From: Clostridia bacterium
GTDB lineage: Bacteria > Bacillota > Clostridia > Oscillospirales > CAG-272
Assembly (NCBI GenBank): GCA_017403155.1
Contig: JAFQOP010000003.1
Location: forward strand, 2,504-66,503
Direction of reading: 5' to 3'
Length of the DNA: 64,000 nucleotides
Shown here: one piece after another, positions 6,729 through 22,500 of the stretch
Numbering within the stretch: position 1 is the first letter of the stretch
How the letters are laid out: the number at the start of each line of letters is the position of its first letter
Notes under the pieces: generated by a model
What the model saw: the letters and a program-made list of their open reading frames with translations, nothing else
The model's database searches: none
What the model was told of the DNA's origin: nothing
Made by a program: the position numbers and the translations under genes

Positions 6729-6751
6729 TAAAAAAAGAAAGGAGAAGCACC

Positions 6752-6988
6752 GTGTTTTTTGAATGGCTCGCTGACAACATTTTTTCCGTTTTAATTCTTC
6801 TCGGCGTGATAGCCGTGCTCGCCATACTCGCCTTCAGGATGTATAGAGAGCATAAGGCATCGGCGCACTCTCCCACCCCGAGGTGCTGCGGCTGTCCTTA
6901 TGCCAAGAGGTGCTCCTCGGGCAGCTCCTCCTGCTCCTGCCACCCCGAAAAGGAGGGTGGGGAAGGGGAAGAAACAAAAAATCCTTAA
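6752..6988 (+). CDS. FeoB-associated Cys-rich membrane protein
   Basis: One N-terminal TM helix followed by a Cys-rich tail (CCGCPYAKRCSSGSSSCSC). GTG start after aggag. Lies immediately after feoB. Confidence 0.75.
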   Translation: MFFEWLADNIFSVLILLGVIAVLAILAFRMYREHKASAHSPTPRCCGCPYAKRCSSGSSSCSCHPEKEGGEGEETKNP

Positions 6989-7006
6989 GCCTTGTATGCC
7001 AAACGA

Positions 7007-7042
7007 AAGGGTGCATAGACAGCCGTCTATGCACCCTTTTTA
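7007..7042 (+). terminator. rho-independent terminator (shared by convergent genes)
   Basis: aagggtgcatagac (7007-7020) pairs with gtctatgcaccctt (7025-7038), followed by a T-run. Confidence 0.8.
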
Positions 7043-7092
7043 AATCCGTAGGGGAGGCGTTTCACCTCCCGTTTTTATTGTTTAAAGCTTGC

Positions 7093-7857
7093 CTAAATAC
7101 GCGCGAAGTAGCCGTCATATGCCAAAACCATGCCGTGCTGTGCCACAATCGGTGCAAGCTCGAAGTGTATCTCCCTCTTTTTGTCGGTCGGAATATGAGA
7201 AACTATGTATTTCGTCTTTTCTCCCGTTATACCTGCCGACTCGAGAATCCCCTTCATTTTTACAAGGGTATTGAGGTCGTTGTGATAGAGGTGCCTCTCA
7301 CTTATCGGCTCCCCCTCAAGCGCGCAGTCAAGCACTGCGCAGTCGATTTTTAGCATCTTCAGCACGTTGAAGGCTCTCTTGTTGAAGAAGCCGCCGTCAA
7401 GCGCGTAGAATAGCGTGCGCGAGCCGACGAGCAAAAAGCTGAAGCACTCCTCGGCAGGGTCGGAGGTCTGATGATTTGTCGGCAGCGCCGCGGCGGTGTA
7501 TTCTCCCACAACAAGCTCCGAGAAGACACCGATGGGATGTCGCTCGATATTCGGGCTCTCGGGCAGGCGCGAGAGCACCTTCTCCGAGGCAAAAACGCGC
7601 ACCCTTTTTCTCTGTGCCAGGCGCAGCACAGCCCTCGGTGAAAAGTGCCCCTCGTGGGAGTGAGATATCAAAACGTCGGTAACCGTGTTAAATATTTCGT
7701 CAAATCCGAGCTCCTTTGCCACCTCAAAAATGTCGTCGGGCGCATCGATAAGAATATGCTCGTCGACAAGGACGCCTCCGCGTCCACGGAACTCCTTTGA
7801 GTATTTTCTTTTATTCTTGCAGGGGCCGTATCCCGTTCCCAGCATTCTTATTTTCAT
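7093..7857 (-). CDS. MBL-fold metallo-hydrolase
   Basis: ISHSHEGH motif (HxHxxH variant), 254 aa. Start is coupled to the galM stop (TAAtATG). Confidence 0.7.
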   Translation of the reverse strand: MKIRMLGTGYGPCKNKRKYSKEFRGRGGVLVDEHILIDAPDDIFEVAKELGFDEIFNTVTDVLISHSHEGHFSPRAVLRLAQRKRVRVFASEKVLSRLPESPNIERHPIGVFSELVVGEYTAAALPTNHQTSDPAEECFSFLLVGSRTLFYALDGGFFNKRAFNVLKMLKIDCAVLDCALEGEPISERHLYHNDLNTLVKMKGILESAGITGEKTKYIVSHIPTDKKREIHFELAPIVAQHGMVLAYDGYFARI

Positions 7858-7858
7858 A

Positions 7859-8872
7859 TTACTTCAGCCTTTCCACACCGTAGACGGTTGTATGGGTATA
7901 GGTCGAGCCCGCGTCGTAGAAGCCGATACCGCGCTTTATGCTGTTCGGCTCGGTTTGCGTCTCAAGGCAGAGGGCTCCGTGCTTTATCCTCTCAACACCG
8001 CCCTTGAAGTCGGGCTTGCCGCCGAGAAAGTTGCCCGTGTAGAACTGGACGCAGGGCTGATCGGTAAAGACGAAGAGCTTTATTTTTCCGTTGTCCACGG
8101 TTGCAATGAGTGGGAGCTCGTCGTCGTGCAGCCCATCCTTCACCGCGTAGTCGATGTGATAGTTGTGGTCGTATCCGCCAGCCTCGTCGATTCTCTCACC
8201 GATTTTGCGCGGAGAGGTGAAGTCATACGTTGTGCCCTTGACCGCAGGGCGCCTGCCCGTTGGGATGAGGCTGCCGTCAACCTCGGTATATACGTCTGCC
8301 ATTATACGCACGGTGTGACCGAGCACGGTGCCGCCGAGTCCGTCCAGGTTAAAGTACGTGTGGTTTGTGAGTGATATGGGTGTCCTCGCCGAGGGCTGTG
8401 CTATGTATTTTATGGTGAGATATGTGCCTGCTAGCGTGTACGTAACCTTGACGGCAAGCTCGGCAGGGAAGCCCTCCTCTCCGTCTGCGGAAAGGTAGGA
8501 AAGGGTAAGCGACTCTGCGCCCTCTCTTTTTTCGGTGCCCTCATATTTCCACATGCGTCTGTCAAAGCCGCAGCCGCCGTGCAGACAGCTCTCCCCGTCA
8601 TTTTTCGGCAGGAGGTATTCCTTGCCATCCATTGTGAAGGAGGCGTCGGCAATGCGGTTTGCAACCCTGCCGATGAGCCCACCCTGGTGAGAGTCATCGT
8701 TGATATAGCCCTCCACGCTGTCGTAGCCGCCGACGATATCCGTGCCATAGACAACGAAGCGCTGCACCGTTGCACCGAGGTCGAGTATAGCCACCTCGCA
8801 GTCTGCGTTTTTCAGTATATATTCGTGCACGGTGGCACCCGTGTCAAGTTTTCCAAACTCTTTTATCTCCAT
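7859..8872 (-). CDS. galM: aldose 1-epimerase (galactose mutarotase)
   Basis: 337 aa. GGLIGRVANRI and LHGG motifs typical of the aldose epimerase family. RBS ggagga. Confidence 0.85.
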   Translation of the reverse strand: MEIKEFGKLDTGATVHEYILKNADCEVAILDLGATVQRFVVYGTDIVGGYDSVEGYINDDSHQGGLIGRVANRIADASFTMDGKEYLLPKNDGESCLHGGCGFDRRMWKYEGTEKREGAESLTLSYLSADGEEGFPAELAVKVTYTLAGTYLTIKYIAQPSARTPISLTNHTYFNLDGLGGTVLGHTVRIMADVYTEVDGSLIPTGRRPAVKGTTYDFTSPRKIGERIDEAGGYDHNYHIDYAVKDGLHDDELPLIATVDNGKIKLFVFTDQPCVQFYTGNFLGGKPDFKGGVERIKHGALCLETQTEPNSIKRGIGFYDAGSTYTHTTVYGVERLK

Positions 8873-9100: not shown

Positions 9101-12100
9101 ATGACAAGGACTAGAAGAATTATCTCGCTGCTTCTTGCGGCGGTAATGCTTGTGCTTTGCGCATTGCCGCTCGCCTCGTGCGGGTCGGATGACGACACCC
9201 CCTGCACCTCCCACGTTGACGCAAACGGCGACGGTGTGTGTGACAAGGAGGGCTGCGGCGCGAGCATGGGCACGGGCACGTGCCAGAATCACGTTGACCT
9301 CAACGGCGACGGTGTGTGTGACAGAGAGGGCTGCAACGAGCCCGTTGCACCGGCACCGGCAGGAAAAACCAAATACACGGTCCAGCTGAAGTCCGTGGGC
9401 GGCTATAAGCTCTCGGGCGTCTACCTCGACCTATACGATAGCGAGACGGGCGCGCTCGTTACCTACGAGAAGACGGACAAGGACGGCTTTGCCACCTTTG
9501 AGGTAGCAACGAAGGAGACCTACTACGTTTCCTTTGGCGATGGTGCGGCTCCCGCAGGCTATATAGGTCAGCAGAGCTATCCGCTTCAGGCAACGGGAAC
9601 CGTTATCACCCTTGCAACACAGCTTCAGCCGGAGGGACACGCGGGTGTTACCTACGCACTCGGTGATATTATGCACGACTTCACCGTCACCACGAGCGAC
9701 GGCACCGTTATAAAGCTCTCCGAGCTTCTCAAGACGAAGAAGGCTGTTGTGCTTAACTTCTGGTACACAGATTGCTCCTGGTGTATTGAGGAATTCCCCG
9801 ACATCCAGACGGCATACGACACTGTTATAGACGAGGAGACGGGGCTTAAATACAGCGACCTCGTTGAGGTTGTGGCTCTTGACCCACCTGCCGCAAACGG
9901 AGACACGATGACCTCTATCCGCGGCTTCAAGGCGGACATGGATCTCACCTTCCCGATGGGACTTGACAACGACGGCATATATGCCTCCTTCGGTGTCGGC
10001 TCCTTCCCGACCACCGTTATCGTTGACCGCTACGGCATGGTTACGGTAAAGCACGCGGGTGCACTCCTCGGTGCAAGCTACTGGAGAAAGCTGTTCTCCT
10101 ACTTCACCTCGGACAGCTATGAGCAGAAAACTGCCGCTACCTTCGAGGAGCTTATGCCCAAGGATAAGCCCAACGTACAGATGCCCTCCTCCGACAAGAT
10201 AGCGGAGTATTTTGACGGTCAGTCAAATATGGGAATAACCTATTCCCCCGAAACCAAGCCCGGAGACGCAGAGTTCTCCTGGCCCTTCACCACAAAGACA
10301 CTCGATGACGGCACGAAGTGCATAGTCCCCACCAACACGGGCTATGACAATTCCTATGCAACCCTCTACGCCACCGTAACGCTGGAGGCGGGCGAGGCGC
10401 TGATGTTCGACTACCACTCCTCCACCGAGCTTACCGATACCAATGCGGACGTCCTCTACGTAATAGTTGACGGCAAGGATATGTATTCCATCGCGGGTCT
10501 GCACGACAACAAGGATAGCTTCTGGGATAAGTGCTGTGCCTTTGTTGCTGAGGAGGCAGGCACCTATGAGGTAGCCTTCGTCTACATCAAGGACACAGCC
10601 GACGATGACCTTGCGGGAGTTGAGGATACTATATATCTTTCCAACCTGCAAAGGCTCGATAAGTCCGAGGTCGACGTGCCGACGTATATCTTCCGCTATG
10701 CCGACGGACTCACCTCCGGGCAGCTGTATCTGAGCGACGTCGACGGCTACTATCACGTAGGCAGTGCCGACGGTCCCATTCTCCTTGCTAACCTTATCGG
10801 ATATACGCCCTTCGAGAGCAAGCTCGAGACGACCAACGCGAGAAAGACGGTCTCCGAGCGCCTTACCGAGGCGGGTACCTTCCTTGTTGGAGGCACCGAC
10901 AGATACAATGACTTTATCAAGCACGCAAATTACAGCGTAAACTCCAGGAGCAGTGGCTACACCTCGGTTACCGAGGAGCTCTATACCCTCCTCGACGCAT
11001 ACGTAAGGAAGTATGCCGCAACCGCAGGAGTTACCTACACCGCCAACACCTGGCTCACCCTCTGTGCATACTACAACGCGTATGGCACGGGCGGCGAGGA
11101 GATGGCAGACCCGATAAAGGGACTTACCTCCTTCTCAGCCTTCGAGACGCTTGAAACCACCGACCCGAATAATAAGCAGTATAACACGGTAACCTTTGAA
11201 ACCGTGGTAATGCCGAGAGGCTATCTGTATAAGTTCGTGCCCACAAAATCGGGCGCATACCGCATCACAACGCAGAGCGACGGTGTAACGATGAACGACA
11301 GAATCGATGCGTGGATTTTCGTCGGTGACCACTACACCTGGCCGTCGGTTCAGGAAAGAGTGCTTTACGACGATTCCGGTAGGGGCGAGAGATACAACCT
11401 CGACCTGCTTGTTGAGGGCGAAAACGGCTTTGAGCGTGATTACATCAACGCAAGTATGATAACCTACCTTGAGGCAGGAAAGACCTATTACCTTGCGTTT
11501 GGCTACGACGACATTTATAAATTCGACACCTTCACCTTCACCGTAACCTATGAGGCAGAGGCGTTTAACGCCTTCTTCGAGGCGAGCCCCGGCACCTTCA
11601 CCTTTGAGGAGGGCCTCGGCGGCGCTGTCGGCGACACCATCGCGGGCGGCATTGACGTAATGATCAGCCCCGAGGACGGCATCTACCGTCATCTCATCTC
11701 CACCGAGACCGACAAGCAGACGGGTCTTGCACTCACTGATGCGGATCGACTTCGTGGAGAGGGCAGCTTTGTTGAGAAGAGCTGGGAGAATGATGGCATC
11801 TTCACCTACGTAACGGAGGTTTCCACCACGGTTGCACGCAACCGCTACGGTGTGCTTAATAAATCAGTGCTCACCACAACCTATAAGCTTGGCGGCAAGG
11901 TCTATGCCGACCTTATCTGGCCCACCAATATATTCACGACCAGAACAATGCAGCAGCTTATAAACGCGGATTCCTTCGACTTTACCAAGACCTCGGTCGA
12001 CCTTGAGGCGCTTGCAATTTACACAGCTTATGCCGAGGACGGTATAAAGCGCTCCGTAATTATGACCCCCTGGCTCACCGAGCGCTTTGAGGAGCACTGG

Positions 12101-13981
12101 GTGGCAGACGGCACCGAGGCAGCCCTTGGTGCGGCAGGCAAGAGCCCGAGCGAGATTGCCGCAGTAAAGGCAGAGCGCCTTGCCGCCTATATCTCGGCTA
12201 TGAACGAGACGAGCCTCGTTATCGCACCTCTGTTTGAAGAATGGTGGGTGGCCGAGGATATGGAGGCAGAGCTCAAGAAGGACGGTAAGACCAACGCAGA
12301 AATCGTTGAAATTAAAATTGAGGAATTCTATAATTACTGCTCCACCGAATTCACAGGATATGATGGCTACGAGATTATCTTCGAGGGCATTTGGCTCACC
12401 TCGGGCAGGGAGGACGCACTCCGAGCAGAGGGCATGGGACTTGCCGACATCAGAAATCTCAAGAAGGCAGAGCGGATTAAATACGTTGCAGACAGAGAGG
12501 CGTGGGATGAATACTACACCGAGATGAGTGCAACCGACGAGGCTCTTACCAAGCTCTTCAACATCGAGTGGGCAGAGAATGACTCCGAGGGCGACAAGGC
12601 AGCAGCCCTTGCCGCATATCTCGAGGAGGTTCACGAAAGACAGGCTGCGTGGGCTTCCGAATTTGAGTCCGTATGGGAGGAGGGCGGCTATCAGGCTATC
12701 TCCGACGGGCTTTATGACAAGAACTATTTCGAGGGCGAGTATAACGATAATTTCCATGAGCACGCAAGGCGCGGCTTCTATGAGTATCACGGCTACGAGG
12801 GCTTCTACTACTGGAGCGATATCTATGATATGGATAATCTCCTTATAGGAGTATTCCACGGCAGTATCCACTCATCTCTTGACAAGGAGGCTCTTGACCT
12901 CTTTGAGAAGGGCGCTGCGAGAATGCTTAGGGCAGAGTGGGGAAGCGAGTACACCGCAAGGTGGAACGAGATGCGTATGGGCGAGGTTGTCAGCGCATTC
13001 AGACTCGGCACCCTCTCCGTTGCCGATATCCCCGAGGCCTCGGTCAGCACCTTCCTTGCCGCAGGCAGGGCGGGAGTCGTTGAAATTTGGCTTGACGAGA
13101 TGTATGAGTCCTTCGGCATTAACGATATAATCGGAGGCACCTTCCACGGCTCGGTATATTCCGAGGACGATCTTTATATTATGAATCTCGCGCTTGAGGC
13201 GGCATACAAGCTTCTCGCGAGCGAGTGGGGCGAGGACTTTGATCGCAACTGGGACCTCTACGGCATGGACGAGATGGTTGTTGCCTTTATGAACGGAACC
13301 GTCAGAGCCGATGAGCTTCTTAATCCCGATACGGTCACCCTCTTTGTAGATGCTCTGGCGCGAGGACTTGCAACCGAGCTCGGTCAGACCGAGGCGGACG
13401 CGGCGTGGAGCAGCTATGCTATGGAGCAAATCCTTGACGGCACCTTCCACGGCAGCATAAAGAGCGCACAGGACGCAGAGTCCATCGAGCAGTACCTCGA
13501 GCTTGCACGCGAGGGACTCGCTGAGCTCTGGGGCGACGAATATGAGGCAAATCTTGCCGCACACAGAATGGCAGACGTATTCGCTGCCTTCGAGGCAGGC
13601 ACCCTCTCCGAGCTCGGTGAGGAGTACGACGGCGCCGTTGCACTCTTCCACAGCACAGTAAGAGAAAAGATCAAGCAAATGCAGGGGGAGATGTTCGATG
13701 AGAAGTGGGCTTCCTATCAGCTCGACGACGTCCTCGCAGGTATCTTCCACAATGACCTCACCGCAAGGATGCAGGCAGTCCTTGACGCTAATCTCGTCTT
13801 CGACGGCGAGGGTAACCTCGAGTATGAGAAGGCGAATCCCGAGAGGCAGGGCTGCGTCGAGGTTGATGCAGCACTTGCCGAGATGCTCCAGGCTCTTATG
13901 GATAAGTACACCTTTGCAGGTGTAGACCACTCCTGGACCAAGCTCTGCTACTATTATCTGTACCTCGGTCCCGAGGCGTGA
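9101..13981 (+). CDS. giant lipoprotein (1626 aa): 2x Cys/Asp module, prealbumin-like domain, thioredoxin/TlpA-fold domain (CSWC), large repeat-containing C-terminal region
   Basis: RBS aaggag. Lipobox LPLASC-G. Modules CTSHVDANGDGVCDKEGC (9203-9256) and CQNHVDLNGDGVCDREGC (9281-9334). Redoxin-like AVVLNFWYTDCSWCIEEFPD...FPTTVIVDRYG (about 9653-10105). Four GxFH(G/N) repeats of about 100 aa near the C-terminus. Confidence 0.9.
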   Translation: MTRTRRIISLLLAAVMLVLCALPLASCGSDDDTPCTSHVDANGDGVCDKEGCGASMGTGTCQNHVDLNGDGVCDREGCNEPVAPAPAGKTKYTVQLKSVGGYKLSGVYLDLYDSETGALVTYEKTDKDGFATFEVATKETYYVSFGDGAAPAGYIGQQSYPLQATGTVITLATQLQPEGHAGVTYALGDIMHDFTVTTSDGTVIKLSELLKTKKAVVLNFWYTDCSWCIEEFPDIQTAYDTVIDEETGLKYSDLVEVVALDPPAANGDTMTSIRGFKADMDLTFPMGLDNDGIYASFGVGSFPTTVIVDRYGMVTVKHAGALLGASYWRKLFSYFTSDSYEQKTAATFEELMPKDKPNVQMPSSDKIAEYFDGQSNMGITYSPETKPGDAEFSWPFTTKTLDDGTKCIVPTNTGYDNSYATLYATVTLEAGEALMFDYHSSTELTDTNADVLYVIVDGKDMYSIAGLHDNKDSFWDKCCAFVAEEAGTYEVAFVYIKDTADDDLAGVEDTIYLSNLQRLDKSEVDVPTYIFRYADGLTSGQLYLSDVDGYYHVGSADGPILLANLIGYTPFESKLETTNARKTVSERLTEAGTFLVGGTDRYNDFIKHANYSVNSRSSGYTSVTEELYTLLDAYVRKYAATAGVTYTANTWLTLCAYYNAYGTGGEEMADPIKGLTSFSAFETLETTDPNNKQYNTVTFETVVMPRGYLYKFVPTKSGAYRITTQSDGVTMNDRIDAWIFVGDHYTWPSVQERVLYDDSGRGERYNLDLLVEGENGFERDYINASMITYLEAGKTYYLAFGYDDIYKFDTFTFTVTYEAEAFNAFFEASPGTFTFEEGLGGAVGDTIAGGIDVMISPEDGIYRHLISTETDKQTGLALTDADRLRGEGSFVEKSWENDGIFTYVTEVSTTVARNRYGVLNKSVLTTTYKLGGKVYADLIWPTNIFTTRTMQQLINADSFDFTKTSVDLEALAIYTAYAEDGIKRSVIMTPWLTERFEEHWVADGTEAALGAAGKSPSEIAAVKAERLAAYISAMNETSLVIAPLFEEWWVAEDMEAELKKDGKTNAEIVEIKIEEFYNYCSTEFTGYDGYEIIFEGIWLTSGREDALRAEGMGLADIRNLKKAERIKYVADREAWDEYYTEMSATDEALTKLFNIEWAENDSEGDKAAALAAYLEEVHERQAAWASEFESVWEEGGYQAISDGLYDKNYFEGEYNDNFHEHARRGFYEYHGYEGFYYWSDIYDMDNLLIGVFHGSIHSSLDKEALDLFEKGAARMLRAEWGSEYTARWNEMRMGEVVSAFRLGTLSVADIPEASVSTFLAAGRAGVVEIWLDEMYESFGINDIIGGTFHGSVYSEDDLYIMNLALEAAYKLLASEWGEDFDRNWDLYGMDEMVVAFMNGTVRADELLNPDTVTLFVDALARGLATELGQTEADAAWSSYAMEQILDGTFHGSIKSAQDAESIEQYLELAREGLAELWGDEYEANLAAHRMADVFAAFEAGTLSELGEEYDGAVALFHSTVREKIKQMQGEMFDEKWASYQLDDVLAGIFHNDLTARMQAVLDANLVFDGEGNLEYEKANPERQGCVEVDAALAEMLQALMDKYTFAGVDHSWTKLCYYYLYLGPEA

Positions 13982-14008
13982 TATTCCTTGTAGGAAAGGA
14001 AAAATAAA

Positions 14009-15877
14009 ATGACGAAATTCAAGAAAATATGGGCGCTTCTGACCTCGCTTGTGCTCCTCCTTTCGGTGCTCTCGGCTCTCTCCGCCTGCACCGAGCCCGA
14101 CGAGGGCGACGGTGGCACTCCCTGCACCTCCCACGTGGACAACAACGGAGACGGTGTGTGCGACAGCGAGGGCTGTGACGAGAGTGTTGCACCCGAACAG
14201 ACGGGGCCTGTTACCTACAAGGTAACGGTGAGGGACTACTTCGGCAATATTCCCGAGGGCTCCTTCGTCCTTGAGGTCGACACGGGTGCGGAGAACACCG
14301 TCAAGGCAAGGCTCAGAGACGGTGTTGCATCCCTCACTCTCGACCGAGGAGAATACACCTTCTTTATAAACACCGACGGTAAATACGTTTATGACGCGCA
14401 GAGCGCTGTCTGGACACCCGACAGCCGAGAGGCGGAGATAGTTTTCTACTCTCCCACCGTTGCAGGGCCCTCGATAGGCGTGGTATGCACCGAGCATACC
14501 GACAGCAATACCGACGGTGACTGCAGATGTGACCTCTGCGGACTCACACTTCCCACCTCCCACGTAAATGTGCAGGGAAATGACTGCGTTTGCGACGTGT
14601 GCGACGAGGTAATCGATGCATTCCATGAGGATAATGACGGTGACTGCGCGTGCGACACCTGCAGCTCGCCCTACCACCCCGACCTTGGCGGCGACAGAAG
14701 CTGTGACAACTGCGGCACCCCCCTCGTCAACCTTGACGGCTTGCTCGAGGGACGTCGCTACGTGACTACAACGGGCGTGTCTGTCGGTGCTACCTCGGTA
14801 GCCCTTGTGGCAGGGGATATGACCTACTTCATCTTTACCCCCACTGTGGGCGGTATATACAAATTCAGCTGTGTTGCCGAGGGTGAAAGCTCGATAGGCT
14901 ACTACGGAGCTCCCCACTTCGTTCAGAAGGAAAACACCGCTACGATAGTCGATGGTGCATTCAGACTCACTATACCCGAGAGTGCAATAAACGAAGGTGC
15001 CGGTGGCACCGCGCAGTACGTTATCGGTATCAGAAGCGAGTCGACCGAGAGCGCTGTCCTGGTTATAGAGCGTGAGGACGACGTGCCCGAGGAGCTTCCC
15101 TTTGTTGACGTGCGTGCGGAGAGTGGTGCAGTAAAATACGACGACCCTCTCAACGACGGACTCGTCGACATCGACGTCACAAAGGCGGTTACGGTCGTTT
15201 ACAACGAGGATGACGGATATTACCATTACGGCAGCGCAGACGGTCCCCTCGTGCTCGTCAAAATAACAGCGTGCGGCAACTCAAATCTTCCCGATTTTGC
15301 ATTTGCCTCCTTCCTCTCGATAACCGAGACGGACAGGCTCTGCTACTATTTCTATGAGGGCGATACCGTCGTCCGCAAGGAAAGCTATAACGTAATGATA
15401 GAGGACTATGCGGCTCTCGCAGGCTCGCGCGGACTCGTCCCCCTTGACAAGACTCTTGCCGATTCGATAAAGAAAATGGGCGAGCACAACGGCTGGTGGG
15501 AGAAGGGCGGCGTCGGCTACATCTTCGGAGACGTATCGGTGAATGCCGAGTCGGCTTGGCTCTTCGCTTGCTCCTACGTCTCCCCCGACCTCTACGGCAG
15601 CTCTGCCTCTCCGATAGGCGTGAGACCCGAGGAGGGCAAGAGCTTTGCGGTGAGGGTCGACGCAGACAGCTCCACCTATCTCAAAATTATAGGCTCCGTC
15701 GGCGGCAGCTTCACCGTGACACTCTCCGACCCGACGGGCACTGCCACAGCCTCGGTGGGCTCTATGGAATACACCGACACCGACAGCGACGGTGTAATTA
15801 CCTTTGACGTTGCGGTAGGCACGGTGATTGTGCTGGAGTGCGGCACTGACGCGCTCCTCACCTTCACCTGCGAGTAA
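14009..15877 (+). CDS. lipoprotein (622 aa) with the shared N-terminal Cys/Asp module plus four more degenerate modules
   Basis: Lipobox LSALSAC-T. CTSHVDNNGDGVCDSEGC (14123-14176). Cluster CTEHTDSNTDGDCRCDLC...DNDGDCACDTC...GGDRSCDNC (14486-14713). Shares the DGYYHYGSADGPLVL motif with the 1626-aa protein. Confidence 0.9.
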   Translation: MTKFKKIWALLTSLVLLLSVLSALSACTEPDEGDGGTPCTSHVDNNGDGVCDSEGCDESVAPEQTGPVTYKVTVRDYFGNIPEGSFVLEVDTGAENTVKARLRDGVASLTLDRGEYTFFINTDGKYVYDAQSAVWTPDSREAEIVFYSPTVAGPSIGVVCTEHTDSNTDGDCRCDLCGLTLPTSHVNVQGNDCVCDVCDEVIDAFHEDNDGDCACDTCSSPYHPDLGGDRSCDNCGTPLVNLDGLLEGRRYVTTTGVSVGATSVALVAGDMTYFIFTPTVGGIYKFSCVAEGESSIGYYGAPHFVQKENTATIVDGAFRLTIPESAINEGAGGTAQYVIGIRSESTESAVLVIEREDDVPEELPFVDVRAESGAVKYDDPLNDGLVDIDVTKAVTVVYNEDDGYYHYGSADGPLVLVKITACGNSNLPDFAFASFLSITETDRLCYYFYEGDTVVRKESYNVMIEDYAALAGSRGLVPLDKTLADSIKKMGEHNGWWEKGGVGYIFGDVSVNAESAWLFACSYVSPDLYGSSASPIGVRPEEGKSFAVRVDADSSTYLKIIGSVGGSFTVTLSDPTGTATASVGSMEYTDTDSDGVITFDVAVGTVIVLECGTDALLTFTCE

Positions 15878-15903
15878 AATAGGAAATTAAAGGAGAATAT
15901 AAA

Positions 15904-16692
15904 ATGAATATCAAGAGAATAATTTCTCTTCTTCTCGTGCTTGTGCTCTCGCTTGGCGTATGTGTTGGACTTGCCTCCTGCGGTGAGCCCGAGACCGAGC
16001 CCTGCACCTCCCACGTTGATAATGACAAGGACGGTGTGTGTGACACCGAGGGCTGCACCGAGGCGGTAACTCCCTCCGAGCCCGAGAAAACAGCCTATAC
16101 GGTAACCGTGCTTGACGACGAGGGCAACGCGGTTGTCGGAGCTACGGTGGAAATCCTTGTCGGCTCCGTCAGATCGGATATCCTCACCACCAACACCGAG
16201 GGCAAGGTAAGCGCAGAATTTGACGTTCAGGGTACGGGTACTGTTGTTGCGAGAGCTACCGTAAAGACCGTCCCCGCAGGATACAAAACACCCTCCTCTG
16301 CCGAGAGATTTTCCGCAGGCGAGACCGAGCTGACCGTAACGGTTGAGAAGGACAGAAGGGTTGCCCATACCGTAAAGCTCGTTGACAGCGAGGGCAACGC
16401 GCTGAATATTGCAGGCGCGACGGTAATGATTTGCCAGCAGACCTGCCAGACCCCCGTAGATACGGATGAAAACGGCGTTGCAGTAATCACCTTCGAGCCC
16501 CTCCCCACCTACCTCAAGGTAAAAATCACCAACTTCGACTACGACACAAGTGACAACAATGATATCGAGACTCTCGATGCTCTTGTCGGCTACGTCTATG
16601 CCAAGGATACCGATGCTGAGGGATACATTCACTTCGAGCTGAGCGAGTTTGATGCCGCAGCTCCCGTGCTTGAGATCGTGCTTCTCAAGTAA
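15904..16692 (+). CDS. lipoprotein (262 aa) with the shared N-terminal Cys/Asp module and two prealbumin/CarboxypepD_reg-like domains
   Basis: Lipobox VGLASC-G. CTSHVDNDKDGVCDTEGC (16003-16056). YTVTVLDDEGNAVVGATVEI and HTVKLVDSEGNALNIAGATVMI beta-sandwich signatures. Confidence 0.9.
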   Translation: MNIKRIISLLLVLVLSLGVCVGLASCGEPETEPCTSHVDNDKDGVCDTEGCTEAVTPSEPEKTAYTVTVLDDEGNAVVGATVEILVGSVRSDILTTNTEGKVSAEFDVQGTGTVVARATVKTVPAGYKTPSSAERFSAGETELTVTVEKDRRVAHTVKLVDSEGNALNIAGATVMICQQTCQTPVDTDENGVAVITFEPLPTYLKVKITNFDYDTSDNNDIETLDALVGYVYAKDTDAEGYIHFELSEFDAAAPVLEIVLLK

Positions 16693-16707
16693 GATATAAG
16701 AAAATGT

Positions 16708-16738
16708 AAAAAAGGACGAGAAATTCTCGTCCTTTTTT
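16708..16738. terminator. bidirectional rho-independent terminator
   Basis: A-run, stem aggacgag/ctcgtcct, T-run, between convergent genes. The 30-mer at 16709-16738 is identical to 38271-38300. Confidence 0.8.
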
Positions 16739-16745
16739 GTTGTAT

Positions 16746-18368
16746 TCAGTTGTAAAATGACTTTATTTCCTCAATATCCCGCTTCAGCTCGTCGTAGGTA
16801 AGCTCGCTTGCATATTTGTATTCTATCAAGCCGTCGGGATTCAGAATTACCGTGACGGGGTAGCCGCCCGTAAAGCCGAGTGAGGTGTAATATTTGTCTG
16901 CCGTCGAGCCCTCAATCTGCGTGTCGAGCGCGAATATCATATTGTCCCAGTCGGAGTAGTTGTTTTTGATGTGGTCGGGAGCCTGATCCTCGTTCAGGAC
17001 CGTGTGTATCGCAATGACAGTGACCTCGCCTGCATACTCGTCTGCAATGCGGTTAAAGTCGGGCAGCTCCTTTTTACAGCCGTCGCACCAAACGCCCCAG
17101 AAGTTGATAATCACAATTTTGCCGTCGGTCGCGGCAGGGTTGATTATATCACCCGTTTTGCCGTTTTCGTCGAGCACCTCGAGGTGTGCGCCAATGCACT
17201 TGTCGAATATTGCATTGCCCGTTGCAATCTCGCTTCCGTCCTTGTTAAGGAAGGCAAGACCGCACGTATCGCAGCATAGATCGCCGTCCCCGTCTGTGCA
17301 GCTGTCGGAAACAACAAGCTCGGAGGGGTCCTTGTAGATGAAGTTGTAGTAAACAAGAGAGCCGACAAGGAGCGCGACGGTGAGAATCAGGGAGACGAGC
17401 CTTGCTACAAAGGAGCGGCGCTCCGCCTTCTTCTTCTCGGCGGCAACCTCCTCCTCGGTGGCAGGGCGCTCGAGCCTTGCCGACAGCTCCGTCTCATTCG
17501 GGGGGAGGAATATTTTTGATCCGCGCCAGGTTATGGCATTCGTCGGGCACACGTCAACACACTCGCCGCAGTTGATGCACTCGCGGTCGCCAACGTGCTT
17601 GATATCCATCTTGCATTTTGCGTGGCATCTTCCGCAGTCAACGCACTTGTCTCGGTTGAGCTTGATGCCGAGGATAGAGAAGCGGTTGAACAAGCCGTAC
17701 AGAGCCCCGAGAGGGCAGAGAAAGCGGCAGAAGAAGCGGTAGATAAATACGCACAGTAGCATTACAGTCACAAAAAGTGAGAACTTCCACACGAACAGCG
17801 GACCGAGGTTTAACAGCTCTGCCGCGTTGTCCGCATGGGAGAGCAGACCTATCGCACCCTCGAGCACACCTGCGGGGCAGATATACTTACAGAAGGAGGG
17901 AATTCCTCTGTCCTTCATCATATATAGAAGTGGAATGCAAACCGTTATAAATACGAGAATTACGTACTTGAGGCAGGATAGCACTCGCGTAAATCTCGAT
18001 TTTTTAATCTTCGGGGTCTTAATCTTGTGCAAAAGATCCTGAACAAGTCCGAAGGGACAGAAGAAGCCGCATATCATTCTGCCGAACATAATGCTGTAAA
18101 GCAGGATAATGCCGAATATGTAGTAGGGAGCTCTCTTTCCCGAGGCAGAGAAGGCATTCTGGAGTGCACCGATGGGGCACGCCGCCGACGCACCGGGGCA
18201 GGAGTAGCAGTTGATGCCCGGGGCGCACAGATTCTTGAGCGGACCCTGGTATATCTTTCCCGTCACAAAGCCCTTGATATGCGCGTTGAAGAGCAGGGCG
18301 CAGTACAGCTGTATAAGACGGCGCTTGGTGGGGATGTGGCTCTTAAACCAATTTAATATCCTTTTCAT
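16746..18368 (-). CDS. NapH-like membrane polyferredoxin fused to a C-terminal thioredoxin/TlpA-family domain
   Basis: N-terminal half has CxxCP-type motifs in and near TM helices (CYSCPGASAACP, FFCPFG, YICPAG, FLCPLGALYG). Two 4Fe-4S motifs: CVDCGRCHAKC and CINCGECVDVCP (17547-17645). One further TM helix (about 17334-17405). Then CTDGDGDLCCDTC (17262-17300) and redoxin-like IVIINFWGVWCDGCKKELPDF (CxxC at 17076-17087). Confidence 0.9.
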   Translation of the reverse strand: MKRILNWFKSHIPTKRRLIQLYCALLFNAHIKGFVTGKIYQGPLKNLCAPGINCYSCPGASAACPIGALQNAFSASGKRAPYYIFGIILLYSIMFGRMICGFFCPFGLVQDLLHKIKTPKIKKSRFTRVLSCLKYVILVFITVCIPLLYMMKDRGIPSFCKYICPAGVLEGAIGLLSHADNAAELLNLGPLFVWKFSLFVTVMLLCVFIYRFFCRFLCPLGALYGLFNRFSILGIKLNRDKCVDCGRCHAKCKMDIKHVGDRECINCGECVDVCPTNAITWRGSKIFLPPNETELSARLERPATEEEVAAEKKKAERRSFVARLVSLILTVALLVGSLVYYNFIYKDPSELVVSDSCTDGDGDLCCDTCGLAFLNKDGSEIATGNAIFDKCIGAHLEVLDENGKTGDIINPAATDGKIVIINFWGVWCDGCKKELPDFNRIADEYAGEVTVIAIHTVLNEDQAPDHIKNNYSDWDNMIFALDTQIEGSTADKYYTSLGFTGGYPVTVILNPDGLIEYKYASELTYDELKRDIEEIKSFYN

Positions 18369-18375
18369 ACCTTAA

Positions 18376-19203
18376 TCACCCCAATCCTATACATTCGCGG
18401 CATATCTTTGCCGCCTTGTCGAGCACGTCTGCCATTCCCCCGTTTACAATGCCGAGGATAATGAAGACCATCGAAAGCGCAAGAATGGCGGTTGCCGCAA
18501 TTCTGCCGATAAGTGCCGAATTAGTGCGGAGCCACACGGCGGCGGCAGGGGGAGGGGGCAGGGGAGAGCCGTCCTCGGCACTCATTCGCAGGAGCTTGCC
18601 CTCGCGCCTCTTCGAGCTTGCGAAGAGGATACCGATTACAAAAGCATACACCGCCGACGGAGTGAGAAAGGCGAGGAGCACAAGAGAGAATGCAAGCACC
18701 TCTTCGTTTGCATTGCCGAGGGCTGTAAAGGTCTCGCTGTCAAGCATTCTGATAATGGGATATATCAAAGATATGATAAACAGACCTATCCCCGAGAGGG
18801 TAAAGATAAAGCGAAGCCTTCTCTCCCTCATTATGGCAGAGACTGTCTCACTGTCATAGAGCGCGTCCTTGGCGCGTCTTTTTGCGATAGAGTATTTTGC
18901 GTCCTCGTCGGGGGCAGCCTTGAGCTTTTCGTCTGTGAGGGGGAGCAGGCGGTTTAGGATGGGTGTACCGATTATCATGGCGAGAGCTATCGCAGACGGA
19001 CAAATCAGACGCAAAAGCGCCCCTCCGATTTCCTCTCGCAGCCCATCACCCGTATATCTGCCCTCGCTCGCAAGGCGCTCGATATTCTCCTCCGAGAAAA
19101 CGCAGGCACAGGATATGATGAAGCAAATCCCGAGTGCTATCAGCATAGCCGCGAGGACGGTAGAGTATATTCTGTGTATCAGCCTCTTTTTGTTTTCGTT
19201 CAT
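18376..19203 (-). CDS. polytopic membrane protein with a C-terminal CxxC tail (KICRECIGLG)
   Basis: About 5 predicted TM helices. Start moved to the ATG at 19203 because the track start (19248) lies inside the promoter spacer. Stop lies 8 nt before the polyferredoxin start, consistent with co-transcription. Confidence 0.8.
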   Translation of the reverse strand: MNENKKRLIHRIYSTVLAAMLIALGICFIISCACVFSEENIERLASEGRYTGDGLREEIGGALLRLICPSAIALAMIIGTPILNRLLPLTDEKLKAAPDEDAKYSIAKRRAKDALYDSETVSAIMRERRLRFIFTLSGIGLFIISLIYPIIRMLDSETFTALGNANEEVLAFSLVLLAFLTPSAVYAFVIGILFASSKRREGKLLRMSAEDGSPLPPPPAAAVWLRTNSALIGRIAATAILALSMVFIILGIVNGGMADVLDKAAKICRECIGLG

Positions 19204-19238
19204 AAGGCGACCGTAGCCTTTCTTAAAAATTATTAAAT

Positions 19239-19267
19239 AGTATATCATGTTTTCTTTGAAAAGTCAA
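19239..19267 (-). promoter_or_regulatory. sigma-A type promoter of the CxxC-membrane/polyferredoxin operon
   Basis: On the minus strand: TTGACT (19267-19262), 17-nt spacer, TATACT (19244-19239). Confidence 0.65.
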
Positions 19268-19475: not shown

Positions 19476-19504
19476 TTGAAATTGTCGGCAAAATATGCTA
19501 TAAT
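19476..19504 (+). promoter_or_regulatory. sigma-A type promoter of the protease/Opp operon
   Basis: TTGAAA 19476-19481, 17-nt spacer, TATAAT 19499-19504. This coincides with the track ORF start, which argues for the downstream ATG at 19560. Confidence 0.65.
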
Positions 19505-19559
19505 CTTCTACGCGTATTATATATTTATACGCGCAAAAACAGAAAGGCAAAACAGATCA

Positions 19560-22500
19560 ATGAACAGAAAGAATCTCACAAGGCTATCATCGCTGCTCGT
19601 CGTAGCCGTTATGGTTGCTCTTCTTCTTGCGTCCCTTCTCACACCCGTTATGGGTGCGGGCTCGGGTACAATCGGGGGCATCAATGCACTTAACGGCATC
19701 AACACGAACTGGCAGCAGTATCTTGACGGCTCGGTAGTAACAAAGCTCCCCGAGACCGTTAAGTCCACCGACGAAATATCGGTGATAATAAAGCTTGATA
19801 ACCCTGCGCTCCTCGATGCTCACGAGGCAACCGACAGGACTATGTCCCTCGCCGAGTTTGCCCTCACCGATGAGGCGGAGGCTGTCAGAAAGGAAATACT
19901 CAGGGAAAAGAGCGAGTATCTCGCCCTGCTCGACGAGCGCGGAATAGAATACGCGACGGGTCTCACCTACGATACCGTTTTTGCCGGCTTTGAGATAATC
20001 ATCAAGGCGTCGAGCTTTGCTACCGCTACCACCCTGCTCGGCGAGAACGGCACAGCCATCGTCGGTGAGGTGTATGAGGTTGCCGAGACCAAGCTCGTGA
20101 ACAACAAGGTCGACTTCTATGAGGATACGGGTATATTCGACAGCTCGGACTTCCCCTTCGACGGCTCGGGCATGGTTATTGCCGTGCTTGATACGGGTCT
20201 TGACTACACCCACTCTGCCTTCGATCCCTCGAGATTTACAGCCACCGAGCTCGGTCTTACCAAGGATGAGGTTGCAGCCCTGCTTGGAAATACCGATGCG
20301 GCATCCCGTTATCCCGGTCTCTCCGCAGACGACGTGTATCTCAACGACAAGGTACCCTTTTCCTTCGACTATGCGGACAGCGACCCCGACGTTTACTCCA
20401 TGCACAACAACCACGGCACCCACGTCTCGGGCGTTATAGTGGGCAAGGACGACGTTATCACGGGTGTTGCACCCAACGCACAGCTTGTGTCGATGAAGAT
20501 ATTCTCGGATACCGCCGACAGCGCGCGTACCTCCTGGATACTTGCCGCGCTCGAGGACTGTGTTACACTCGGAGTTGACGTTATCAATATGTCTCTCGGT
20601 ACCGCCTGTGGCTTCAGCCGCGAGATGGACAAGGAGGCAGTGACGGGTGTCTACGACAGAATCCGCTCCACCGGTATCAGCATGGTCGTTGCCGCCTCCA
20701 ACAGCTTTAACTCCGCCTACTCCTCGGAGAAGAACGGCAACCTTCCTCTGACCTCCAACCCCGACTCCGCTACGGTAGGCTCCCCCTCCACCTATGAGGG
20801 CGCGCTCTCGGTTGCATCCATCGCAGGCGAGAAGACCCCCTATATGCTCTACAACGGAAAGATAGTCTATTTCGTTGAGGCAACCAATTCCTCCCAGAAG
20901 GAAAAGGACTTTTTTGATGAGATTCTGACTCCCCTTGGCACTGATTCTGTTGAAATTGAATATATACTTATCCCCGGTGCGGGACGCCCCGCAGATTATA
21001 CGGGTCTTGATATGACGGGCAAAATTGCCCTCGTCCGCCGCGGCTCGAACACCTTCGAGGAGAAGGCGAATGCCGCGCAGGCCGCAGGCGCCGCAGGCAT
21101 CATCGTCTTCAACAACGTTGCAGGCGACATCAAGATGAACGCAGGCGTAACCAAAATTCCGATTTGCTCGATAGGGCAGGACGACGGTGAGATGCTTGCC
21201 GCAGCGGGCAGCGGTGTGCTGAAAATAAGCCGCATACAGACCTCGGGCCCCTTCATCTCCGACTTCTCATCCTGGGGCCCCACCCCCGACCTCGGAATCA
21301 AGCCCGAGATAACCGCCCACGGAGGCAACATCCTCTCCGCTGTAACCGCAAATACGGGCGAGAGCGGCTATGACCGTCTCTCGGGTACCTCGATGGCTTG
21401 TCCCAATATGGCGGGTGCCGTTGCTCTTATGAGACAGTACGTCAAGGCAACCTTCCCCGAGATCCGTGAGGACGAGGTCGAGGTTACCGCTATGGTAAAC
21501 AGACTCCTTATGTCCACCGCGGATATAATGCTCAACAAAAACGGTCTGCCCTATGCCGTAAGAAAGCAGGGCGCGGGACTCGGCAACCTTGACAAGGCGT
21601 CCGCCACCACCGCATATATCCTCACCTACGACCGTCTCGACGGCTCCGTGATGGACAAGACCAAGCTCGAGCTCGGAGACGACCCCGAGAGGACGGGCGT
21701 ATATGAGATGACCTTCTCGGTCAATAACTTCGGCTACTACGACCTTATCTATTTCGTTGACGCATACGTCATGACCGAGGGCGTCAGTGAGACCAAGACA
21801 CACGCGGGCGAGACCACCGTAACCGAGGAGGGCTACCTCCTTGACGGCGCAAAAATCGAGATAATCTCGGTAAGCGGCGGCACACAGAGCGGCATGAAGG
21901 TCACCGTCCCTGCAGGTGAGAGCACCGACGTCACGGTGAGAATAACCCTCTCCGATGCCGATAAGAAATACATAGACGACTCCTTTGAGAACGGTATGTA
22001 CGTAGAGGGCTTCGTAAGGCTTGAGCCCGTGTCGGGCACCGACGTAGGAATGAGCGTGCCCTACCTCGCCTTCTACGGCGACTGGACCGAGGCACCCCTC
22101 TTTGACCTCGACTATTTTGAGACCAACAAGGACGAGCTCGACGATTCTATCGAAACCCTTGACAAGACCCTCCCCGACGCATACGCAACCCGTCCCGTCG
22201 GCGGTCTTTACCTCGATTACATCAGCTATCTTGGCTCCTACTACTTCGTTCAGGACCCCCAGAATGAAATAATCTCGGCAAACCGCGATTACATATCCCT
22301 CACCAACACGGGCGAGGCGCTCCACTCTCTTGTCAGCGTCTACGCCGGACTTCTCCGTAACGCGGAGAGGATAGTCGTGACGATAACCGACGATGCAACG
22401 GGCGAGGTTATATTCGAAACTGTTGCAAACGACGTGAGAAAGTCCTACGGTGACGGCGGACCCATCTATCCTGCCAACGTGGAGATAGAGTTCGACACCC

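Follow-up and report, generated by a model that had tools for sequence, protein, structure and literature searches.

The window analyzed here, a stretch of 64,000 nucleotides from a Clostridia bacterium (assembly GCA_017403155.1, contig JAFQOP010000003.1, positions 2,504 to 66,503), contains a short Cys- and Asp-rich module that recurs in three neighboring lipoproteins and in a membrane protein encoded on the opposite strand (Table 1). The lipoboxes of the lipoproteins of 1626, 622, and 262 amino acids (aa) are LASC (Cys27), LSAC (Cys27), and LASC (Cys26), respectively, and fit the pattern [LVI][ASTVI][GAS]C when read by eye. The 1626-aa protein consists, in this order, of two modules, an immunoglobulin (Ig)-like domain, a ResA/AhpC-TSA-like thioredoxin domain (CSWC at 9773), and a long C-terminal region, and the 262-aa protein has one module followed by Ig-like (Big_1/Invasin_D3-like) domains. 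The 540-aa membrane protein is a fusion in which a NapH-like polyferredoxin is followed by an extra transmembrane (TM) helix (~17334-17414), a degenerate module, and a ResA-like thioredoxin (Trx) domain (WCDGC at ~17090). In its AlphaFold2 model, the thioredoxin domain is confident and the module linker has a predicted local distance difference test score (pLDDT) of ~69-77.

Table 1 Module copies and the genes that carry or adjoin them in the window
Feature	Position	Strand	Remarks
1626-aa lipoprotein gene	9101-13981	+	Lipobox Cys27 at 9179-9181
Shared 17-mer CCCTGCACCTCCCACGT	9200-9216, 14120-14136, 16000-16016	+	Exact match
Canonical module 1 CTSHVDANGDGVCDKEGC, 1626-aa protein	9203-9256	+	Independent E-value 2.8e-11; 8 residues past lipobox Cys
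Canonical module 2 CQNHVDLNGDGVCDREGC, 1626-aa protein	9281-9334	+	Independent E-value 4.8e-8
622-aa lipoprotein gene	14009-15877	+	Lipobox Cys27 at 14087-14089; no Pfam family
Canonical module CTSHVDNNGDGVCDSEGC, 622-aa protein	14123-14176	+	Independent E-value 6.9e-10; 12 residues past lipobox Cys
Four tandem degenerate modules CTEHTDSNTDGDCRCDLCG, SHVNVQGNDCVCDVC, FHEDNDGDCACDTC, YHPDLGGDRSCDNCG, 622-aa protein	14486-14716	+	Between the Ig-like and C-terminal domains
262-aa lipoprotein gene	15904-16692	+	Lipobox Cys26 at 15979-15981
Canonical module CTSHVDNDKDGVCDTEGC, 262-aa protein	16003-16056	+	Independent E-value 9.6e-10; 8 residues past lipobox Cys
540-aa membrane protein gene, NapH-thioredoxin fusion	16746-18368	-	Domain order in the text
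Degenerate module CTDGDGDLCCDTC, 540-aa protein	17262-17300	-	Directly after the last TM helix; independent E-value 0.38
290-aa CD1871A-family membrane protein gene	18376-19248	-	C-terminal CXXC (CRECIGLG); without module; conserved neighbor of the NapH-Trx gene

The first-pass annotation had listed nine copies of this module, four of them canonical and five degenerate. The canonical 18-residue peptide C-x2-H-V-D-x-[ND]-x-D-G-V-C-D-x-E-G-C was found at four places only in a six-frame translation of the window. A hidden Markov model (HMM) of 193 module instances, all from other organisms, was scanned over 1100 translated window segments and recovered the same four copies with independent E-values of 3e-11 to 5e-8, so that both approaches agree with the positions first given for them. 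The degenerate copies fared less evenly. With the external HMM, the independent E-values were 0.04 (14480-14548), 0.38 (17256-17303, minus strand), 0.69 (14690-14722), and 3.9 (14624-14668), and the copy at 14561-14602 had no match; their individual significance was thus not upheld. Their placement was: they make up four of the seven top matches below the canonical four among the translated segments, close homologs of the 540-aa protein have canonical forms such as HTIHVDADGDDYCDEC in the juxtamembrane linker, and orthologs in the 622-aa family have a canonical module at the internal position of the degenerate copies. Weak on their own, the degenerate copies are supported by orthology.

A large protein family with two module classes

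A 30-column profile was built from the window copies and searched against 1.84 billion representative proteins. This revealed a large family: 667 proteins (clusters) matched at E<=1e-3 and 58 at E<=1e-10, with a best E-value of 5e-62, and many of the matches carry 2-12 module copies. A word-index search with a 57-aa double-module query matched 2 proteins only. The family consensus is [C/H]-x(1,2)-[H/C]-x-D-x-[DN]-x-D-G-x-C-D-x(1,3)-C-(G), over ~18-24 residues, and consists of a Dx[DN]xDG motif nested between two Cys/His pairs that are eight residues apart.

Two classes were distinguished among the profile matches. Class H is His-containing and follows the pattern C-[T]-x-H-[V]-D-x-[ND]-x-D-G-x-C-D, continued by x-C-G (55%) or x-x-G-C (44%) in 178 instances. 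Class FY, in which an aromatic residue is found, is made up of small secreted proteins with 3-5 repeats of [FYW]-V-D-A-[ND]-G-D-G-[VI]-C-D-N. Intermediate forms connect the two (e.g., P0172 and P0177). In one 89-aa protein from an ENA metagenome (P0161), a Gallimonas-type lipoprotein start with a class-H module is joined to class-FY repeats; this protein is either a true bridge between the classes or a chimera created in assembly.

Conservation was read from an HMM alignment of 605 instances of both classes, made without forced anchors. The first Asp of the loop is conserved in 100% of them, the second position is [ND] in 95-99%, the third is D or N in 98-99%, and the loop Gly is present in 76-100%; the core Cys and the Asp after it are each found in 97-99%. 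All four canonical window copies fit D-x-[DN]-x-D-G. The earlier remark that the core resembles a calcium-binding loop was thus borne out, the Dx[DN]xDG motif being exact and conserved over hundreds of proteins. A common low-complexity linker, which had been named beforehand as one outcome that would overturn the first-pass annotation, is ruled out by these conservation data. Such a linker, or a chance recurrence, would agree with the low-complexity tethers that orthologs have at the position of the module (see below) and with an AlphaFold2 confidence that is only moderate, but it is barely credible given the position-specific conservation of Cys, His, Asp, and Gly in hundreds of diverged proteins, the E-values down to 5e-62, and the recovery of the window copies by a model built from other organisms (3e-11 to 5e-8).

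A genome scan with a 7-sequence alignment as the query gave 18 module loci, 17 of which come from gut Clostridia assemblies (Ca. Gallimonas, Christensenella, Ca. Limiplasma, Ca. Flavonifractor, Ruminococcus, Lachnospiraceae, and Eubacteriales). The eighteenth carries the label Nitrospiraceae and is of class FY. From the organism names and general knowledge of these groups, we take the hosts to be strictly anaerobic gut Clostridia.

Class-FY genes were also seen directly upstream of an extracytoplasmic function (ECF) sigma factor gene at three loci (L021, 4128-5700; L015, 184-1374; L031, 8001-9613), the ECF sigma factor being followed by an RsgI-like anti-sigma factor in L021 and L031, and upstream of a histidine kinase gene at a fourth (L019, 9082-11523). 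Class-FY proteins may act in envelope signalling as secreted partners that bind a metal or calcium.

Ligand positions and probable metal binding

A class-H module contains one His next to three Cys, and at the first two ligand positions the two residues are interchangeable in both directions. Where the first ligand Cys is missing, His stands in its place in 22 of 40 cases, for example in HSHIDENNDGVCDVEGC, present in five copies in P0007, and in HTIHVDEDGDGTCDQC of NapH-Trx homologs. The reverse exchange, His to Cys, occurs in L029 (CAQCTDANNDGKCDNCG and CVTCVDSDKDGKCDVCG) and gives CxxC...CxxCG. The last Cys is present in 187 of the 190 instances with His at position 4 and in 57 of the 395 with an aromatic residue there, counts that are nominal, as the instances are related and phylogenetically non-independent. 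In addition, Gly follows the CxxC of the second pair in 77% of instances. The Cys/His swaps, the coupling between His and the last Cys, and this Gly together point to a four-ligand, Zn-type site rather than to disulfides. The module is very probably metal-binding, as judged from these sequence patterns. The first-pass annotation had left the choice between a metal-binding, a disulfide-stapled, and a redox-switchable module; the first option is the one that our analysis favors, while three Cys and one His per module and the swaps between them speak against the other two.

We infer, with moderate confidence, that the module is a Ca- and Zn-stabilized spacer bead. It would be an autonomous mini-domain of ~18-24 residues, in which two short knuckles, [C/H]xx[H/C] and CDx(1,3)C, would together hold a single structural transition-metal ion (most likely Zn2+) by four ligands, and in which the eight-residue Dx[DN]xDG loop and the invariant Asp after the third ligand would bind Ca2+. 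Such a bead would be small, rigid, and acidic and would space the membrane anchor (a lipid-modified Cys or a TM helix) from the first globular domain, or two domains from each other, and tandem copies would make the stalk longer.

Rigden et al. 2011 (PMC3123361) describe Dx[DN]xDG as a calcium-binding linear motif that occurs in many structural contexts, with Ca2+ bound by the side chains of residues 1, 3, and 5 and by the main-chain oxygen of residue 7; compared with that description, the module has the exact motif and an acidic residue at motif position 9. It differs from the EF-hand in that the loop is without flanking helices in the AlphaFold2 models, and from dockerin and thrombospondin type 3 (TSP3) repeats in lacking their repeat lengths and Cys patterns. 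The Cys/His-knuckle frame was matched by no curated DxDxDG-type family scanned and, to our knowledge, is absent from the structural contexts listed for the motif.

Scans of Pfam-A and NCBIfam gave no at-threshold match for the window module regions or for ten diverse homologs. The best sub-threshold Pfam match among calcium-binding families for a homolog was Excalibur (PF05901), at 18.0 bits against a gathering score of 22 (13.5-14.3 bits for other homologs), and the window copies had no Excalibur match even at E<=10. EF-hand (PF00036/PF13202; 18.4 and 17.4 bits, with 25.4 and 25.9 required), Dockerin_1 (PF00404; 13.3 against 22.9), and the Lin-12/Notch repeat (Notch LNR, PF00066; 13.9 against 21.2) also stayed below threshold, as did the TSP3 families (PF02412 and PF18884), TSP3_bac reaching 7.8 of the 25 bits needed with an aromatic-class protein only. 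NF033662, an acidic double-disulfide repeat, reached 26.1 bits against 41 for one homolog and had no match in the window proteins. The zinc families were below threshold as well (DZR, 13.4 bits against 27.3; with a module variant, zf_UBZ at 25.4 against 25.6 and Zn_Ribbon_1 at 20.2 against 25), several zinc-ribbon or zinc-finger families matching CDxCG variants weakly. PF27309 (MJ0753_N) had looked like an existing family for the module; its precomputed matches, on P0012 and P0105, are faint, and it was neither found in local Pfam scans nor recorded for the window proteins. Literature searches on the motif strings and on PF27309 gave nothing relevant, and those on CD1871A and MJ0753 gave nothing. 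The module appears to be outside the curated families tested and the published papers found, as well as solved structures (see below).

Two candidates of other kinds were rejected. A haem-binding CxxCH motif is ruled out, as the pattern is CxxH without an adjacent CH. A peptide modified by a radical S-adenosylmethionine enzyme (SCIFF-like) was discarded because the proteins with the module are large Sec-exported lipoproteins, and no maturase was present among the families with at least two members listed for 111 open reading frames (ORFs) neighboring module genes.

Excalibur is an extracellular bacterial calcium-binding region of ~36 residues with the signature DxDxDGxxCE. The module shares with it the extracytoplasmic, bacterial setting and a DxDxDG loop followed by a conserved Cys and an acidic residue, with an upstream Cys that closes the loop. 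It differs in its DGxCD spacing, one residue shorter than DGxxCE, in its length of 18-24 residues, in a closure by a four-ligand [C/H][H/C]CC set instead of a single Cys pair, and in its tandem juxtamembrane arrays. With zinc ribbons and knuckles (Zn_Ribbon_1, DZR; CxxC...CxxCG), the module has in common the two ligand pairs, the Gly past the second knuckle, and the Cys/His interchange; in sequence pattern and substitution it thus has the two knuckles with four interchangeable Cys/His ligands that define this group, but it is extracytoplasmic and has an eight-residue acidic calcium-loop motif between the knuckles where zinc ribbons have a beta-hairpin. Notch LNR and low-density lipoprotein (LDL)-receptor class A modules are small extracellular beads arranged in tandem, with bound Ca2+ and a framework of Cys where a hydrophobic core would otherwise be. 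These have six Cys, three disulfides, and ~35-40 residues, and no homology to the module was detected. Excalibur is the nearest relative, and the module is best filed among the Cys-framed calcium-binding modules.

An alternative is a pure calcium loop closed by a disulfide, Excalibur- or TSP3-like, with no transition metal and with a His that is structural or incidental. The exact Dx[DN]xDG motif (PMC3123361), the sub-threshold matches to Excalibur, EF-hand_1, Dockerin_1, Notch LNR, and NF033662, the extracytoplasmic location, and the exactly two Cys per unit of some aromatic-class repeats all agree with it. We nevertheless regard it as unlikely, given the odd number of Cys per module, the coupling of His to the last Cys, the Cys/His swaps in both directions, the single Cys of many aromatic-class repeats, and hosts that are presumably strict anaerobes.

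Position, gain, and loss of the module

Among 65 class-H proteins, 55 have a signal-like start, and in 48 a lipobox precedes the first module. In these 48, the first ligand follows the lipobox Cys at a median distance of 10 residues, and at <=20 residues in 41. This statistic may be inflated, because N-terminal copies were used to seed the profile and the matches of one search were mostly short N-terminal fragments. The placement directly after the lipid anchor, first remarked on in the window, is thus a general rule. Other anchors are found too: in L016, L018, and P0184, the module immediately precedes a C-terminal TM helix that has a basic tail, and in the 540-aa window protein it follows the last TM helix. 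Tandem arrays reach 10-12 copies and extend far from the membrane.

The genes at 9101-16692 (plus strand) and 16746-19248 (minus strand) of the window form a conserved extracytoplasmic thiol-redox cluster, also present at the loci L023-L029 and apparently uncharacterized. Its parts are the NapH-like/ResA-like fusion joined through the extra TM helix, the CD1871A-family CXXC protein, and the giant lipoprotein with a ResA-like domain. The block is syntenic in L023, L024, L025, L026, L027, and L029, in the order thioredoxin-lipoprotein, ~550-aa protein, Ig-like lipoprotein, NapH-Trx fusion (on the opposite strand), CD1871A-like protein, and giant S8/LRR protein.

The module content of this block varies. 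In the window, the N-termini of the lipoproteins have 2 + 1 + 1 modules, the NapH-Trx linker has one degenerate copy, and the 622-aa protein has four more degenerate copies in its interior. The N-terminal pattern of L023 is the same (2 + 1 + 1), L024 and L029 are variant, and in L026 two of the four proteins carry modules. In L025 and L027, no protein has a module and tethers rich in Ser, Gly, Asp, Glu, and Pro are found instead, yet the whole thioredoxin system is kept. The alignment of the 622-aa family shows clean indels that span exactly the N-terminal module. The internal module of this family is single in L023, L024, L026, and L029, absent from L025 and L027, and fourfold in the window, where it is a lineage-specific tandem expansion. 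The redox cluster can thus do without the module, and a disordered tether can replace it; a spacer role draws its main support from this.

Gram-positive surface lipoproteins are usually pictured on disordered membrane tethers. A widespread group of gut Clostridia uses instead a defined bead of ~20 residues, probably binding two metals, that is swapped freely with such tethers. In the window, the module tops the N-terminal cassette of three paralogous lipoproteins, with a degenerate copy in the juxtamembrane linker of the NapH-thioredoxin protein, and its presence in a thiol-redox cluster would be incidental.

The position of the module could also be read as a sign of active, calcium-dependent docking, either as a bridge to anionic lipids or teichoic acids or as a dockerin-like pairing of modules that would co-assemble the proteins at the membrane. 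Its strict juxtamembrane placement, its acidic calcium-loop character, and its presence in all four cluster proteins of the window and L023 would suit such a role. It seems quite unlikely all the same, as arrays of 10-12 copies reach far from the membrane, the presence of the module in L026 and L029 is not concerted, unstructured tethers replace it in L025 and L027, and it has no known partner.

A functional tie to the thioredoxin and NapH-like genes had been proposed in the first-pass annotation, and this proposal was not supported. When the window thioredoxin, NapH-like, and CD1871A-like proteins were used as tblastn and phmmer queries against the module loci, one NapH-like neighbor only was found (L019, class FY). 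Pfam searches of the 111 neighbor ORFs of 14 non-redundant module loci found no family in more than two ORFs, and thioredoxin, AhpC, and Fer4 were absent from the families listed with two members. Conversely, the NapH-like/thioredoxin fusion family comprises at least 6252 clusters (90% identity) at E<=1e-10, and among its 120 best homologs, 19 have a DxDxDG-x-C core in the linker and 101 are without the module. The co-occurrence with thioredoxin genes in the window does not generalize, which is a caution against over-reading gene neighborhood.

It should be noted that NapH-like proteins are treated as trans-membrane electron carriers (PMC8238504). With two ResA-like domains and a NapH-like electron-input module in the cluster, a CxxC or Cx4C pair in the module, and the module in the three lipoproteins and the NapH-Trx fusion alike in the window and L023, it could be argued that the module is a disulfide-stapled or redox-switchable element of the adjacent thioredoxin system, serving as its substrate, docking site, or thiol switch. 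We find this very doubtful: neither the 14 loci nor most of the NapH-Trx homologs (101 of 120) associate the module with redox genes, L025 and L027 keep these genes without it, and three Cys plus one His, with Cys/His swaps, would be incompatible with a disulfide role there. A related reading, in which the tetrad would bind a redox-active metal (a rubredoxin-like Fe or a Zn-thiolate switch) and membrane-anchored arrays of up to 10-12 modules would relay electrons outside the cell or sense oxidants, fed or reset in the window by the NapH-like/thioredoxin fusion, is a long shot. If true, such arrays would offer strictly anaerobic Gram-positives a protein-bead substitute for multihaem cytochromes or flavinylated carriers.

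Several observations weigh against the Ca- and Zn-stabilized spacer bead, besides the caveats attached above to the ligand counts and the position statistic. The AlphaFold2 model of the double module has a mean pLDDT of 64, with isolated beta-bridges only and no clear fold. A sequence-profile search of the PDB gave only a spurious C2H2 zinc-finger match (E 0.54), and a Foldseek search of the PDB with the double-module model gave no analog (best E 7.7). In class FY ([FYW]-V-D-x-[ND]-G-D-G-x-C-D-N), the core Cys is kept and the other three ligands are often missing; given this class, the invariance of the core Cys is not fully explained by a Zn tetrad. Finally, all four cluster proteins carry the module in both the window and L023, which leaves some room for a module role specific to this cluster. 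If the bead is confirmed, Dx[DN]xDG would gain a new structural context, with its calcium loop held in the clamp of a Cys/His metal site, and hundreds of protein regions now without annotation would receive a domain name; as a rigid linker that is small, repeatable, and metal-dependent, the bead might also be of use in protein engineering.

DNA similarity at the gene starts and neighboring genes

The three lipoproteins share an N-terminal cassette made up of the signal peptide, the module, and an Ig-like domain, with 31-50% protein identity. The first-pass annotation had described near-identical DNA at the three gene starts, with a common 17-mer, and had taken this as a hint at module duplication or gene conversion. 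The description applies to the 17-mer, which has exactly three exact copies in the window against 0.01 expected from shuffles, and not to the module as a whole, as the first modules of the three paralogs are 81-83% identical to each other at the DNA level. This is still closer than the 72-78% that separates them from their L023 orthologs, and the L023 paralogs are 63-69% identical among themselves. Identical codons at shared residues were counted in 14 of 14 cases between modules 1 and 2 of the 1626-aa protein; its first copy has 13 of 14 in common with the 262-aa copy and 12 of 16 with the 622-aa copy. About half would match by chance given the codon usage, and the adjoining Ig-like region is near this expectation. 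The Ser codon is TCC in all three first copies of the window and AGC, TCG, and AGC in L023. From this comparison, which covers 54 nucleotides per copy, short-tract gene conversion among the three gene starts in the window lineage is plausible: the window paralogs are closer to each other than to their L023 orthologs, and the excess of identical codons is local. The DNA similarity would then reflect paralogy together with conversion.

Some other features of the region were recorded. Residues ~1242-1560 of the 1626-aa protein (window ~12820-13800, plus strand) contain four repeats of ~100 residues, predicted to be helical and without a Pfam match, each of which begins near G-[TV]-F-H-G-S (residues 1250, 1346, 1447, and 1547). 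A 2463-aa protein encoded at 19476-26867 (plus strand), with Peptidase_S8, PA, fn3_5, and LRR_5 domains and a C-terminal TM anchor, is without the module, and this S8/LRR protein adjoins the redox cluster in 7/7 related loci examined (L023-L029). Upstream of the cluster (window 4320-8872) are genes for FeoB, Lactamase_B_2, and an aldose-1-epimerase. The pair formed by the epimerase and metallo-beta-lactamase-fold genes is syntenic in L023, L024, L026, and L029, and FeoB_N was also seen in 2 of the 14 unrelated module loci.

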